Positions 1 to 4,028 of a DNA stretch of 4,314 bases are shown in pieces; the stretch's first letter is position 1, and each line of letters begins with the position of its first letter. The stretch comes from a virus. Taxonomy: Duplodnaviria > Heunggongvirae > Uroviricota > Caudoviricetes. The stretch lies in IMG/VR virus record IMGVR_UViG_2671180460_000009; one strand, written 5' to 3'. Below the pieces are notes generated by a model. It saw only the letters and a program-made list of their open reading frames with translations, was not told the DNA's origin and did no database searches. Made by a program: the position numbers and the translations under genes.

Positions 1-315
1 CATCTGAGTGACGGTTCTTTATGGGATCGCCAGGCTTTTCCGGACACCACAATCCTTGAGATCCGTCCCCGGAAAAGACTGAAACATGCAGGTGATGGTG
101 GCAACAGTGGCGGTCTGCTCAGTTTCACATCGGCACATACCGACGCCTGGCGTCAGCAGGGCTACGAGGACACGATGTTGACGATGGAGCATATCCGGAA
201 ACCGCTGGCGGCGCGTCAGGTACTGTCCCGGTCAGAAACGGTGTTGCAGAAAAGTCTGGAGAAAACGGAAGAGGCAGATTCGGCACTGAGAAACGCGATG
301 GCCCGGATTAAATAA
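1..315 (+). CDS. 3' end of an upstream protein-coding gene (5' end outside window); possibly the island GTPase (YfjP/YkfA/YeeP family), but identity not established
   Basis: Frame 1 is open from position 1 to TAA at 313..315 (105 codons, checked codon by codon); GC-rich, coding-like composition; followed by an intrinsic terminator. The GTPase guess is only by synteny with K-12 CP4 islands, where a GTPase precedes the DUF932 gene. Confidence 0.6.
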   Translation, partial: HLSDGSLWDRQAFPDTTILEIRPRKRLKHAGDGGNSGGLLSFTSAHTDAWRQQGYEDTMLTMEHIRKPLAARQVLSRSETVLQKSLEKTEEADSALRNAMARIK

Positions 316-330
316 AGACGCTCCGGAGAA

Positions 331-358
331 ACGCCACCGCCTGTGGTGGTGTTTTTCT
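331..358 (+). terminator. Rho-independent terminator of the upstream gene
   Basis: ACGCCACC (331..338) pairs with GGTGGTGT (345..352) as an 8 bp stem with one G-U wobble, 6 nt loop GCCTGT, followed by a T-run (352..356), 16 nt after the TAA stop. Confidence 0.55.
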
Positions 359-359
359 G

Positions 360-443
360 GCTGGTGTTATTGAAAATATTTTCAGATATATATTACCTGG
401 ACGATGGTTAAGATTAATTTATTTAATTTTGGAGAGAAAACTC
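360..443 (+). promoter_or_regulatory. Putative promoter and ribosome-binding region for the first cargo gene
   Basis: AT-rich intergenic DNA; TTGAAA (370..375) is a possible -35, with several TATA-like hexamers downstream but none at ideal spacing; Shine-Dalgarno GGAGAG at 431..436, 7 nt before ATG 444. Promoter hexamers are by eye only. Confidence 0.3.
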
Positions 444-902
444 ATGAAACTGTTAAACATTCTTTTATCTGTTGTTTTAACTGTAAGTGCAACCGTCGCA
501 CAAGCAGAATCGGCATTGTGGAAGCGTAACAGTGTTGCCGGAACTGATATGTTCAGTATTGGTAATGTTTCTATTAACTGCACGACTAATCCAGAAGACA
601 ACAATTTGCTACCGCACTATGTGTGGATTTACGGTCATACCCCCACCCCGCTAAATCAGTACGATTCTGATATCATTTTTATCATCAACGGTAAAGAGTA
701 TCCGGTCCCACCTGTCGACGGAACACGAATGAATGAGAACGAATGGGTACACTTTATCGATGCTATCGGTGAAGCCACGAAGTTCGACGTTTTAGTAAAC
801 GGTAAGAAAGTTGACAGCTATACCACAAATATCAAAAATGTGAAAAAGATTTTGGGTAACAAATTCTACGGCAGCTGCTGGAGCACCTGGTTCCAGGAAT
901 AA
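444..902 (+). CDS. Exported hypothetical protein, 152 aa, cleavable Sec signal peptide, two cysteines
   Basis: ATG 444 preceded by GGAGAG; N-terminus MKLLNILLSVVLTVSATVAQA|E has a basic residue, hydrophobic core and AQA signal peptidase I site; Cys46 and Cys145 in the mature part; AT-rich codon usage. The ORF-track start at 429 is a TTG with no better RBS. No family recognised. Confidence 0.8.
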   Translation: MKLLNILLSVVLTVSATVAQAESALWKRNSVAGTDMFSIGNVSINCTTNPEDNNLLPHYVWIYGHTPTPLNQYDSDIIFIINGKEYPVPPVDGTRMNENEWVHFIDAIGEATKFDVLVNGKKVDSYTTNIKNVKKILGNKFYGSCWSTWFQE

Positions 903-1027
903 TTGATAACGTGGTGTAAAACACCTCAGTTTAATTTAATACAGTGAGTGAAAATGAATATCATAAAAATATTTTCTGCTTCAGATGTCACATATTTTAT
1001 TAACTGAATGATTAACAGGAGAATCAG

Positions 1028-1567
1028 ATGAACTGGCATTATGAAAAAAATGGTGTACGTTATGATAACGTAACAGAGGAAGATATTATTGAACGTATCC
1101 GCCGTGGTGAACTGAATGCATCAACACTGGTGTGGCAATAGGGCATGCTGGAATGGCAGCCAGTTTCAGCCACATCACTGGCGGAAATACTGAAACAAAG
1201 TGAAGTTCCTCCGGCCCTTCCGGGTCACCGCATTCCCGGAGGCGTTGTCTGGACGCTGGCATTTGCCCCTTTGATTGGATACATACTTGAGATGTGGACT
1301 GCCGGGCTGAACGGTATGTCATTTGAACGGGCTTATGATGCAGTCAGCGAAGGCCAGTACTGGTTTATCTCTCTGATTCTGAATATTGCTCTGGGATATC
1401 TGGATGAACGAAAACTCCGTAAATCTGGCGTGGATACCACAGCATTTGGCTGGCTGGCATGGTTGATCCCGGTTTATCTGTGGCGTCGGGCAAAAATCCT
1501 CGGGCAAAAACCTGCTTATTTCTGGGTCTGGTTGGTTATGCTGATACTGGTGTTATTTACGGTCTGA
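1028..1567 (+). pseudogene. DUF4339 (GYF-like) domain fused to a 3-4 helix membrane region, interrupted by an in-frame amber codon at 1139..1141
   Basis: ATG 1028 has a strong AGGAG at 1017..1021 (6 nt spacing) and encodes MNWHYEKNGVRYDNVTEEDIIERIRRGELNASTLVWQ, then TAG, then the same frame continues as GMLEWQPVSA... into the 1145..1567 ORF. The W-Y-x-NG ... TLVW-x-x-GM-x-W pattern matches DUF4339 as I remember it, and the stop falls inside that motif. Downstream hydrophobic runs (VVWTLAFAPLIGYILEMWTAGL, YWFISLILNIALGYL, AFGWLAWLIPVYLW, AYFWVWLVMLILVLFTV) look like TM helices. ATG 1145 has no convincing RBS. Confidence 0.65.
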
Positions 1568-1836
1568 TATTCTTTATCGCAGAGTTTACTAAATAATCAG
1601 GTTATTAGTGTTCTTAACAGGTAAATGATGTTCATCATGGAACGGATATATTTTATTTGATTCAGGAGACAGTCAGAAACATAGTATAAATATATCGCCA
1701 TGTTGAAGGTCATATCTTCAGGTATTTGTTTAATAAACAAGTCGGGAGTTAATCCTGACCTCTCGAGTGGATTATAAGTATTGCAGAAACAGTTTTTATA
1801 CTTTTATTTAATATCAGAAACAATGGAGTATTTATC

Positions 1837-2250
1837 ATGAAAAATATCATCACTATTTTAATGATTGCAGTTATCAGTTTCTTTACTGCTAATGTATCAG
1901 CAAACAATGCCGTTCCTTTACCAACCAACCTGACTGATGTTACTGACGGTACAGAATTCTGGTGTCAGGGTACTGATACTATCGACGGAGGTTGTGAATA
2001 CCTGGGCACATCCAAAGACATGCAATACGGTCTGGTACACGCCATGGGGGGTACAGCGTGCTGGGATGGTTTATACGGCGTAATTAATTTCTATACCGGT
2101 AAAGCCCAGACCATCAAATACAACAACAATCAAAGTTGTGAAGGCAACATCACCGCCAGTTTCGTTACCCTGAAAAACGGTAAACCGGGCGTTAAACTTT
2201 ACGACAATACGATTCATAAGGTTGTCGGGCTTGACGAAATCAAATTTTAA
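1837..2250 (+). CDS. Exported hypothetical protein, 137 aa, cleavable Sec signal peptide, four cysteines
   Basis: ATG 1837 with GGAG at 1825..1828 (8 nt spacing); N-terminus MKNIITILMIAVISFFTANVSA|NN is a typical signal peptide with a VSA cleavage site; Cys43, Cys53, Cys75, Cys101 in the mature part; AT-rich codon usage; strong terminator 50 nt downstream. No family recognised. Confidence 0.8.
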   Translation: MKNIITILMIAVISFFTANVSANNAVPLPTNLTDVTDGTEFWCQGTDTIDGGCEYLGTSKDMQYGLVHAMGGTACWDGLYGVINFYTGKAQTIKYNNNQSCEGNITASFVTLKNGKPGVKLYDNTIHKVVGLDEIKF

Positions 2251-2300
2251 TGTATGAATTATAGTATCTTATCTGCGCGTTATTAATATCAAATGTAAAT

Positions 2301-2336
2301 AAAGCCCCGGCCATTATGGCAGGGGCTTTATTTTTA
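2301..2336 (+). terminator. Strong Rho-independent terminator after the second exported-protein gene, possibly bidirectional
   Basis: AAAGCCCCGGCC (2301..2312) pairs with GGCAGGGGCTTT (2318..2329) as a 12 bp stem with one internal mismatch, 5 nt loop ATTAT, followed by ATTTTTA (2330..2336); an A-rich tract lies upstream (2291..2303), so it could also terminate minus-strand transcripts. Confidence 0.75.
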
Positions 2337-2629
2337 CTGAAAATACATGACGGGCTGTACATTACTTTTATTTTCCGAAGACCCTTTCTCACGCAAACAG
2401 ACAGTTGCTGTCATAACAGCTTACCGCAATGTGTTTATCCAGGAATGCATTTCCGGCGGATTATCCGCAACGCGGAAGGTCAGCGACGCTGGCGCTGCCG
2501 GAATTCTGAACCCGATGTAGGCAAATAACTTAATGCGTGGCTCACCAGTGAAGGGCTTCCCGGACAATAAACCTCATTCATTTCACCCATCAGGCCGCGT
2601 CTTCTCCGGGAGACGCGGCTTTTTCATTT
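2337..2629 (+). ncRNA. Candidate small RNA or regulatory leader bracketed by two terminators (hypothetical)
   Basis: About 260 bp with no ORF carrying a credible RBS; the only + strand ORFs here (70 aa at 2316..2528, which starts inside the terminator stem, and 57 aa at 2347..2520) lack a Shine-Dalgarno. The stretch is bounded by the terminator at 2301..2336 and ends in a second perfect terminator hairpin at 2594..2629. No RNA family recognised. Confidence 0.25.
2594..2629 (+). terminator. Rho-independent terminator or attenuator hairpin 40 bp upstream of the DUF932 gene
   Basis: GCCGCGTCT (2594..2602) pairs perfectly with AGACGCGGC (2611..2619), 9 bp GC-rich stem, 8 nt loop, followed by TTTTT (2620..2624) and CATTTA. 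Confidence 0.6.
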
Positions 2630-2669
2630 ATTACACCAGTAAATCTTAACCACCGATAAGGAGCAAATT

Positions 2670-3488
2670 ATGCGACTAGCCAGTCGTTTTGGTTATGCGA
2701 ACCAGATACGCCGTGACCGTCCGCTGACACACGAAGAACTGATGCACTATGTGCCGGGGATTTTCGGGGAAGATAAACACACGTCCCGAAGCCAGAACTA
2801 TACGTACATCCCCACCATCACCGTACTGGAAAGCCTGCAGCGGGAGGGCTTTCAGCCCTTCTTCGCCTGTCAGACCCGCGTACGTGACCCGGGCCGCCGG
2901 GAATACACCAAACACATGTTGCGTCTGCGGCGGGCCGGAGAGATAAACGGACAACATGTCCCTGAAATTATTCTGCTCAACTCCCATGACGGTACCTCCA
3001 GCTACCAGATGCTGCCGGGTTACTTCAGGTTCATCTGCCAGAACGGCTGCGTCTGTGGTCAGTCTCTGGGGGAAGTGCGTGTTCCACACCGGGGAAATGT
3101 AGTGGAGAAAGTTATCGAAGGGGCTTACGAGGTGGTGGGCGTGTTTGACCGGATAGAGGAGAAGCGTGATGCCATGCAGTCGCTGGACCTGCCGCCACCG
3201 GCACGCCAGGCGCTGGCACAGGCGGCACTGACTTACCGTTATGGTGACGAACATCAGCCCGTCACCACCGCCGACATTCTGACGCCACGACGCCGGGAGG
3301 ATTACGGTAAGGACCTGTGGAGTACTTATCAGACCATCCAGGAGAATATGCTGAAAGGCGGGATTTCCGGTCGCAGTGCAAAAGGAAAACGTATCCACAC
3401 CCGTGCCATTCACAGCATCGACACCGATATTAAGCTCAACCGCGCATTGTGGGTAATGGCAGAAACGCTGCTGGAGAGCCTGCGCTGA
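2670..3488 (+). CDS. DUF932 / UPF0380 family protein (YafZ/YfjQ-like)
   Basis: ATG 2670 with AAGGAG at 2658..2663 (6 nt spacing); 272 aa; the translation (MRLASRFG ... ILLNSHDGTSSYQM ... VIEGAYEV ... TPRRREDYGKDLW ... ENMLKGG) resembles the E. coli K-12 prophage UPF0380 proteins YafZ/YfjQ as I recall them; GC-rich backbone composition. Confidence 0.9.
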   Translation: MRLASRFGYANQIRRDRPLTHEELMHYVPGIFGEDKHTSRSQNYTYIPTITVLESLQREGFQPFFACQTRVRDPGRREYTKHMLRLRRAGEINGQHVPEIILLNSHDGTSSYQMLPGYFRFICQNGCVCGQSLGEVRVPHRGNVVEKVIEGAYEVVGVFDRIEEKRDAMQSLDLPPPARQALAQAALTYRYGDEHQPVTTADILTPRRREDYGKDLWSTYQTIQENMLKGGISGRSAKGKRIHTRAIHSIDTDIKLNRALWVMAETLLESLR

Positions 3489-3542
3489 TTCAGCCATTAC
3501 CCTGAAAACCACGCATTTATTTGTCCTTTAAGGAGTCATTTC

Positions 3543-4028
3543 ATGAAAACCATTTCACATAATTCCACCACATCTTCTGTTTCCGTAACCGCTGCATCAG
3601 GGAATGACCAGCCTCAGTTGGTTGCCACCATAGTCCCTGATGAACAGCGCATCAGCTTCTGGCCGCAGCATTTTGGCCTCATTCCACAGTGGGTGACCCT
3701 GGAGCCCAGTGTTTTCGGCTGGATGGACCGTCTGTGCGAAGACTACTGCGGTGGTATCTGGAATCTGTACACTCTGAACAACGGCGGGGCATTTATGGCC
3801 CCCGAACCGGATGACGATGATGACGAAACCTGGATACTGTTCAATGCCATGAACGGCAACCGCGCTGAAATGAGCCCGGAAGCCGCTGGCATTGCTGCCT
3901 GTCTGATGACGTACAGTCATCACGCCTGCCGTACGGAGTGTTATGCCATGACGGTCCATTATTACCGGTTGCGGGATTACGCCCTGCAGCATCCGGAATA
4001 CAGTGCCATTATGCGTATCATCGACTGA
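3543..4028 (+). CDS. Antirestriction protein, ArdB/KlcA family (YfjX/YafX-like)
   Basis: ATG 3543 with AGGAG at 3531..3535 (7 nt spacing); 161 aa; translation closely resembles the K-12 prophage antirestriction proteins YfjX/YafX from memory, including WPQHFGLIPQW, GGIWNLYTLNNGGAFMAPEPDDDDDE and HHACRTECYAMTVHYYRLRDYA. Confidence 0.9.
   Translation: MKTISHNSTTSSVSVTAASGNDQPQLVATIVPDEQRISFWPQHFGLIPQWVTLEPSVFGWMDRLCEDYCGGIWNLYTLNNGGAFMAPEPDDDDDETWILFNAMNGNRAEMSPEAAGIAACLMTYSHHACRTECYAMTVHYYRLRDYALQHPEYSAIMRIID

Follow-up and report, generated by a model that had tools for sequence, protein, structure and literature searches.

A predicted exported four-cysteine protein family shared by CP4-type islands and Chimalliviridae-type jumbo phages, with a possible role in phage-host conflict

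What does a small, apparently exported protein do for the mobile elements that carry it? The question is raised by an open reading frame (ORF) for a protein of 137 amino acids (aa), at positions 1837-2250 of a stretch of DNA catalogued as tailed-phage sequence (IMG/VR record IMGVR_UViG_2671180460_000009, Caudoviricetes). We call this whole stretch of 4,314 nucleotides (nt) the window and the ORF the target. An earlier interpretation made from the letters alone (the sequence-only reading) had proposed an exported protein with four cysteines, a candidate effector or binding protein, transcribed on its own and faintly recalling the periplasmic lysozyme inhibitors. We find that the target is very probably a genuine exported member of a mobile-element family carried by phages and islands. 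This family is found only on mobile elements of Enterobacterales, namely CP4-type integrative islands and jumbo phages of the SPN3US/Erskinevirus type. The explanation of its role that we put forward, at a probability of roughly 0.35, is that of a periplasmic binding module acting in phage-host conflict. The earlier interpretation is thereby supported in part: an exported protein, which we take to be of the binding type, is upheld, whereas the hint of lysozyme inhibition and the gene's own promoter are not.

The ORF on the plus strand was confirmed, its ATG being the first possible start after the in-frame stop codon. Against its orthologue from a Salmonella enterica island (locus L009; 88% protein identity), the target coding sequence has a synonymous divergence (dS) of 0.65 and a nonsynonymous divergence (dN) of 0.063, and the resulting dN/dS of 0.098 indicates strong purifying selection in this frame. 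Because of this ratio, and because full-length phage homologues align with the target from Met1, the ORF stands beyond what chance would give. The exact protein occurs on 995 contigs of a public collection, always as a 'hypothetical protein'.

The N-terminus combines Lys2, a hydrophobic core of 16 residues and V-S-A at positions -3 to -1; residues 1-20 are the only hydrophobic stretch of the protein, and inspection of the N-terminal sequence found no lipobox cysteine. All full-length family members are built in the same way, beginning with M-K/R followed by a hydrophobic core and an AxA-like site, and the signal peptide with VSA cleavage proposed earlier is thus seen in the target and its full-length relatives alike. 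Cleavage after Ala22 would leave an acidic mature protein of 115 aa (12.5 kDa, pI 4.9) beginning NNAVPL. Its four cysteines are where the sequence-only reading had placed them, at residues 43, 53, 75 and 101 (Cx9C, then 21 residues to the third and 25 to the fourth), and the mature domain has the length it had given. C43, C75 and C101 are invariant in our family alignment (A2), and at least 90% of its sequences retain C53. A periplasmic location and disulfide bonds are predicted from these features.

In the PHROGs database the target falls into phrog_8968 (E = 1.8e-37), with residues 1-135 on positions 1-134 of the 135 in the profile; the function of this family is given there as unknown. Searching phage genomes with tblastn returned 53 records, all of them jumbo phages of about 240 kb whose hosts are Erwinia, Salmonella, Escherichia or Proteus; they match over the full length at 38-42% identity. 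Among the phage members are SPN3US_0182 (ACQ60_gp084) and gp203 of Erwinia phage Asesino. Seoulvirus and Erskinevirus, the genera of these jumbo phages, belong to Chimalliviridae. By the searches we ran, the family is very small: exhaustive phmmer comparison with 1.84 billion cluster representatives gave only 16 clusters at E <= 1e-3, and a word-indexed search of 5.8 billion proteins returned only E. coli and Salmonella copies together with frameshifted fragments. Matches P0006-P0009, listed as divergent in the first search, proved to be frameshifted copies and were rejected as distant relatives. A scan of GTDB representatives produced one match, an acyl-CoA dehydrogenase sharing only the word DGTEFWCQ, which we discarded as spurious, and a scan of IMG/VR with the window protein produced none. 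Neither Pfam (at E <= 1) nor NCBIfam matched the target, Pfam matched no other family member at E <= 5, and sequences in the PDB matched neither the single protein nor the family profile. Members are annotated 'hypothetical' throughout, and a literature search by protein accession, phage gene number and topic found no publication on the target or its family. We regard it as an undescribed family belonging to a known class, the small exported accessory proteins of mobile elements.

In the jumbo phages, the target homologue belongs to a syntenic row of genes for small exported proteins, with SMC-like and acetyltransferase genes downstream. This array includes SPN3US_0181, a paralogue within the family (hhalign probability 96%, E = 1.2e-9), and SPN3US_0183, in which all four cysteines align with the family; SPN3US_0180 is also exported, but has no detectable relation to the family and was rejected as a member. 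Metagenomic family members display an array and synteny matching those of the jumbo phages. Two genes upstream of the target, the Salmonella island encodes an exported protein of 150 aa that likewise belongs to the family (hhalign E = 2e-12) and is 49% identical to SPN3US_0181. Since the adjacent phage genes 0181 and 0182 both have island counterparts, these comparisons suggest that jumbo phages and islands have exchanged such genes en bloc.

Two further observations concern these phages. A 222-kb Enterobacter ludwigii 'plasmid' (NZ_CP134650.1, locus L011) carries a family member in SPN3US-like gene order, with the exported array, a gene of ~2.5 kb at the SMC-like position and genes for an acetyltransferase and an SLT transglycosylase; what was deposited is probably the genome of a jumbo phage carried in the culture. 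YdgH/BhsA-like (DUF1471) genes also occur near the array in jumbo phages (locus L015, 1-692; locus L011, 546-755). As DUF1471 is another family of small enterobacterial periplasmic proteins, its presence in array-bearing phages suggests repeated traffic of envelope proteins between phages and hosts.

The window is E. coli DNA. Of 5426 complete genomes of this species, 78 match the 801 bases around the target (90-100% identity, on chromosomes only), and the whole block from 316 to 2600 is present in 77 E. coli genomes; a further copy of the target, with 98.5% protein identity, is found on a 260-kb plasmid record. In NZ_CM171611.1, the target region lies in an integrative island adjoining tRNA-Ser and ghrA. 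The genes there are, in order, a helicase and methyltransferase pair, a GTPase, Ag43 and dynamin-family, RdcB-family and patatin-like genes, then a hypothetical protein of 152 aa, a DUF4339 protein, the target (WP_000789536.1) and a DUF905 pseudogene, and then DUF932, antirestriction, RadC, DUF987, CbeA and CbtA genes. This last set, from DUF932 to CbtA, is the backbone of islands of the CP4-57/CP4-44 class, and within the window Pfam recognizes DUF932, Antirestrict and RadC downstream of the target. Placed between variable cargo and conserved backbone, in an island beside a tRNA gene, the target is cargo of a CP4-type island.

Comparison with an O157 island (locus L008) delimits this cargo. 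By blastn, window positions 1-432 and 2449-3594 are common to both, and in the O157 island only ~30 bp lie between them (about 3119-3148). With ~30 bp standing in place of the genes, the segment from ~433 to 2448 is a discrete 2-kb cassette; its fractional GC content is 0.32-0.45, against 0.55-0.61 in the flanks. Across E. coli, the island slot occurs in three states: empty, as in O157; filled with the three-gene cassette of the window (77-78 genomes); or filled with a two-gene cassette, which we call cassette B (locus L012, 9001-10110). Cassette B encodes a weakly Ivy-like exported protein followed by WP_000846713.1, and is present in at least 1884 of the 5426 complete E. coli genomes, APEC O1 and the type strain ATCC 11775 among them. 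WP_000846713.1 is 35% identical to the target (E = 6e-21) and lies between the patatin-like and DUF932 genes. A search for orthologues and their neighbours, which the sequence-only reading had suggested, thus led to islands of other genera as well as to the jumbo-phage arrays: in Salmonella the target stands between the GYF_2 gene, upstream, and DUF905 and DUF932, downstream, and in Edwardsiella tarda a 31%-identical family member occupies a similar island, upstream of antirestriction, RadC, CbeA and CbtA genes.

To what kind of protein does this family belong? Given the mature domain and a 10-sequence alignment, AlphaFold2 returned a model with a predicted local distance difference test score (pLDDT) of 84.2, a predicted template modelling (TM) score of 0.78 and no segment with a pLDDT below 50. 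The model contains seven beta strands and no substantial helix, and its fold, which has no solved relative, resembles a pair of four-stranded meander sheets. Foldseek found nothing below E = 0.097 in the PDB. In BFVD, a database of predicted viral structures, it found only Erwinia jumbo-phage relatives and paralogues, the top matches having E-values of 1e-9 to 3e-8 and TM scores of 0.78-0.80 to the target model. Judged from where the cysteines fall in the sequence with respect to the strands, C43 probably pairs with C53 and C75 with C101. Invariant across the family are the cysteines and residues presumed to be structural; nothing among them obviously forms a catalytic set, and a binding module therefore fits better than an enzyme; Pfam, NCBIfam, the PDB and Foldseek gave no enzyme-like match by sequence or fold. 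The profile and structure searches that the sequence-only reading had called for assigned the protein confidently to no unrelated known family, phrog_8968 being itself without a known function.

From the foregoing we infer periplasmic residence, disulfide pairing, binding instead of catalysis and an anti-phage role, which together would work as follows. The target would be exported by the Sec pathway, cleaved after VSA22 and released into the periplasm, where it would fold as a compact all-beta domain of ~12.5 kDa locked by two disulfides made by DsbA, most likely in the pairing given above. There it may act as a non-enzymatic binding module in phage-host conflict, attaching to an envelope component or to a periplasm-acting component of an incoming phage such that infection is blocked. 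A phage would gain superinfection exclusion from such a protein, and an island would gain protection of its host. Envelope-directed proteins of lytic phages and mobile elements are typically superinfection-exclusion factors, as exemplified by T4 Spackle and Imm, T5 Llp and Cor, and the target shares their general character in being encoded by phages and mobile elements and, judging by its signal peptide, exported to the envelope. We favour an exclusion-like role because it is the sole class of function that would serve a lytic phage and equally an island profiting from the protection of its host. The helicase and methyltransferase pair and the dynamin/RdcB/patatin cluster carried by the same island were also counted toward a reading in terms of phage conflict. 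Argued by analogy, an envelope-level anti-phage or exclusion role for the target is a tentative proposal. More doubtful is its extension to the phages, in which the array of the nucleus-forming Chimalliviridae (Seoulvirus/Erskinevirus clade) would be an envelope-level system for superinfection exclusion or host manipulation, from which CP4-type islands captured single members as defence against such phages, and the protein a new stand-alone periplasmic binding fold.

Several lines of evidence weigh against a periplasmic binding module in phage-host conflict. No function has been assigned by experiment or homology, all relatives being 'hypothetical' and the literature search empty, and PADLOC matches neither the target nor, convincingly, its neighbours. 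A dN/dS of 0.1 between E. coli and Salmonella carries no signature of an arms race. The island protein is 39% identical to its counterparts in Salmonella and E. coli phages, no closer than to those in Erwinia phages (42-43%). Its periplasmic location and disulfides are predictions, and the pairing of the cysteines was guessed from their order in the sequence. Finally, the conserved neighbour encoding a GYF_2 membrane protein hints at a partner-dependent role.

This last point is at the centre of the alternative that survives best, which we nonetheless consider unlikely: the target could work in the periplasm as partner to the GYF_2 (DUF4339) membrane protein encoded next to it, the two forming a two-component envelope module such as a sensor/effector pair. 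In the islands of E. coli and Salmonella alike, the GYF_2 gene immediately precedes the target; it is intact (179 aa) at E. coli locus L001 and Salmonella locus L009, and 74% DNA similarity runs unbroken from the GYF_2 gene through the target. As no terminator was detected between them, the two may be co-transcribed. However, family members occur without a GYF_2 gene in the jumbo phages, in Edwardsiella and in cassette B of E. coli. Moreover, the GYF_2 gene of the window has a premature stop (TAG at 1139-1141, codon 38; NZ_CM171611.1 and Salmonella have a C where the window has the T), whereas the target beside it is intact.

A second alternative, slightly more doubtful, is that the target inhibits a peptidoglycan hydrolase, either a lysozyme or a lytic transglycosylase, in the periplasm and so guards the sacculus against host-derived lysozyme or the enzyme with which an incoming phage pierces the cell wall; if the enzyme is phage-borne, this overlaps with the binding module in phage-host conflict that we prefer. 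A small, cysteine-stabilised beta protein with predicted export would suit such a role, and SPN3US encodes a transglycosylase ~8 kb from the array. The FYTGK segment of the target had been read as a faint echo of the TKG motif of the lysozyme inhibitors, an idea that motif, hidden Markov model (HMM) and fold comparisons did not bear out. The PliC/MliC family is marked by the motifs SGSGAxY and YxxxTKG; the target reads NFYTGKAQ, with the order T-G-K, and has no SGSG stretch, and we rejected it as a carrier of the motif. The HMMs of Pfam for MliC (PF09864) and Ivy (PF08816) do not match the target, which also has no CxxxxC loop of the Ivy type (CKPHDC). The eight-stranded beta-barrel of PliC/MliC does not appear in its model, and no lysozyme inhibitor is among its structural matches in Foldseek.

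More favourable to this alternative is a weak Ivy-like signal that two further island variants show in the gene lying just ahead of the family member. In Edwardsiella tarda, the exported protein upstream of the family member (locus L007, 5060-5947) scores against Pfam Ivy with E = 1.4e-3 and 19.2 bits, where the cut-off is 21. A two-sequence profile of such neighbours had as its top PDB matches the Ivy structures 4ps6 and 1uuz (E = 0.04-0.05), around the CxxxxC inhibitory loop. In place of CKPHDC, these neighbours carry CKANTC or CENGSC, without the inhibitory histidine. They were found in Edwardsiella (L007), at a Klebsiella/E. coli locus (L010, 5564-6247) and in cassette B of E. coli, and none is in the window. 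The E. coli neighbour on its own has no Pfam match, and among the homologues of these proteins we retrieved neither an Ivy annotation nor a Pfam-Ivy protein. Separately, the C-terminal part of the Edwardsiella protein aligns with the target family at four cysteines, at an hhalign E-value (0.022) that is not significant.

Third, and very unlikely, the target could be one subunit of an oligomeric lectin resembling a beta-propeller, in which units of two blades assemble as homo-oligomers or, in the phages, as hetero-oligomers of paralogues, and the closed propeller binds an envelope glycan such as lipopolysaccharide core, enterobacterial common antigen, peptidoglycan or periplasmic glucans. Compared with propellers of the PD40/WD40 type, such as TolB and those of S9 peptidases, the target has two blades only and no sequence repeat signature, and the scores are too low to infer homology. 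Least probable of all is a function confined to the phages, in timing lysis or remodelling the envelope while a jumbo phage infects, with the island copies as passengers of no benefit to the host: array synteny kept across phage genera would fit a part in the phage life cycle, and antiholins and spanins are among the exported proteins of phages, but strong purifying selection acts on the island copies (dN/dS 0.098), which are kept in several genera, with a paralogous form in more than one-third of E. coli genomes, spanins and T4 RI are unlike a soluble all-beta fold, and no lysis genes adjoin the array.

We also examined the signals that surround the gene (Table 1), which the sequence-only reading had taken for an independent transcription unit. 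The ribosome-binding site it had noted is in place, and the ribosome-binding region TGGAGTATTTATCATG is the same in E. coli and Salmonella. The AT-rich upstream region is likewise as described, an intergenic gap of 269 bp (1568-1836) with 30.5% GC, and the gene is followed by the strong terminator that had been reported. At this hairpin Rfam gives terminator-type matches below threshold only; the Salmonella orthologue has a hairpin and T-run at the corresponding place, with a different stem sequence. The proposed promoter, by contrast, was not confirmed: a consensus scan upstream of the target returned no sigma-70 site on the plus strand, and the best candidate falls short of its threshold. 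Salmonella has TTGATT-17-CACAAT in a layout and position matching this candidate, whose -10 element at 1680-1685 would predict a transcription start near 1692. As the terminator search detected none after the upstream gene, co-transcription of the target with that gene is possible.

Between the candidate promoter and the gene lies a hairpin whose stem, judged by eye, has been preserved in Salmonella by two double (compensatory) changes. No T-run follows it, and it could be an element of the 5′ untranslated region if the promoter is real. On the minus strand, a promoter-like site (TTAATA-17-TATAAT, 2286-2258, 10 of 12 matches) lies between the target stop codon and the terminator and points into the target; by eye it is apparently not conserved in Salmonella. 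A second strong terminator-like hairpin is found at 2592-2621, ahead of the DUF932 gene.

Table 1. Features of the window in and around the target gene (coordinates are window positions)
Feature	Coordinates	Strand	Evidence
Variable CP4-type island cassette: YfjT-like gene, GYF_2 gene, target, start of DUF905 pseudogene	433..2448	+	blastn against O157 island (L008)
GYF_2 (DUF4339) gene with C-terminal hydrophobic, presumably membrane-spanning region	1028..1567	+	Pfam GYF_2, E = 8.6e-7
Candidate sigma-70 promoter, weak: TTGATT, 17-nt spacer, CATAGT	1657..1685	+	8/12 matches; under consensus-scan threshold
Conserved hairpin GTCGGGA-GTTAA-TCCTGAC, 7-bp stem	1741..1759	+	E. coli/Salmonella alignment
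Shine-Dalgarno sequence GGAG, 8 nt 5′ of ATG	1825..1828	+	Direct reading; stretch TGGAGTATTTATCATG identical in Salmonella
Target coding sequence, 137-aa precursor	1837..2250	+	RefSeq WP_000789536.1, annotated 'hypothetical protein'; dN/dS 0.098; phrog_8968, E = 1.8e-37
Signal peptide, residues 1-22, predicted signal peptidase I cut VSA/NN	1837..1902	+	Hydropathy, residues at -3/-1; equivalent N-terminus in all relatives
Mature 115-aa domain, predicted all-beta, with conserved C43, C53, C75 and C101	1903..2247	+	AlphaFold2 model; cysteines invariant or nearly so in alignment A2
Intrinsic terminator, hairpin and T-run	2297..2333	+	-23.8 kcal/mol; z = -4.75 against shuffles

Among the neighbouring genes, the first of the cassette (444-902) encodes an exported 152-aa homologue of YfjT (31% identity, E = 4e-22), an uncharacterised protein of the CP4-57 element of E. 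coli K-12. This ORF has no detectable relation to the target family, and it and, by comparison, K-12 YfjT itself were rejected as members. Downstream of the stop codon in the GYF_2 gene of the window, an ATG at 1145 could restart translation, which would yield the hydrophobic C-terminal part only. The idea that the GYF_2 protein is common to the SPN3US-like phages was rejected: the sole match, a marginal one (E = 5e-3, 43% coverage), came from a different jumbo phage of Erwinia. A DUF905 remnant (2347-2528) follows the terminator; it is frameshifted according to RefSeq, and its counterpart in the Salmonella island is intact (79 aa). Directly before the cassette in E. coli is the trio of dynamin, RdcB and patatin genes (locus L001, 14363-18716), and window positions 1-315 are the end of the patatin-like gene. 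Compared with PADLOC, the proteins of this trio gave weak partial matches only (LeoBC, phospholipase effector), and in PADLOC-DB 2.0 neither the target nor any other cassette protein had a match at E <= 1.

If a periplasmic binding module in phage-host conflict is the right explanation, it would be the first periplasm-acting function assigned to jumbo phages of the Chimalliviridae type; a 2026 review on the biology of jumbo phages nowhere uses the terms periplasm, signal peptide, secreted or superinfection in its main text. It would also explain a very common unannotated E. coli island gene, given a paralogue in at least 1884 of 5426 complete genomes, and could affect the host range and therapy success of SPN3US-like phages of Salmonella and E. 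coli. Should the inference fail, there would still be a small orphan family defined by its signal peptide, four cysteines and all-beta fold without a solved relative, as well as clear evidence that jumbo phages and integrative islands have exchanged genes. The link between Chimalliviridae and CP4-type islands, together with the high prevalence of the paralogue, makes the target a reasonable subject for experiments.

Set beside known systems, the target recalls the lysozyme inhibitors PliC/MliC and Ivy in being small, predicted to be periplasmic and disulfide-bonded, with a possible Ivy-like neighbour in other islands; it differs from them in having no HMM match, defining motif or structural match. 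Like T4 Spackle and T5 Llp, it is small, exported and encoded by lytic phages, and its proposed action is likewise periplasmic and directed against incoming phage. There is no relationship to either in sequence or fold, and the likeness is one of logic only: Spackle is helical and Llp a lipoprotein, whereas the target is predicted to be a soluble all-beta domain and has no lipobox. Nearer to hand, WP_000846713.1 shares the island slot and part of the 3′ untranslated stretch of the window. Its first cysteine pair is spaced Cx7C in place of Cx9C, which sets it in a separate subfamily. Where the window has the YfjT-like and GYF_2 genes, a weakly Ivy-like exported protein comes before it, and it is about 25 times commoner. 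Closest of all are the phage members of phrog_8968, which match the target from end to end at 38-43% identity and have the same length, a signal peptide, the four conserved cysteines and the same predicted fold (TM about 0.8 in BFVD); they stand in tandem arrays, whereas the target is a single island gene with its own terminator.

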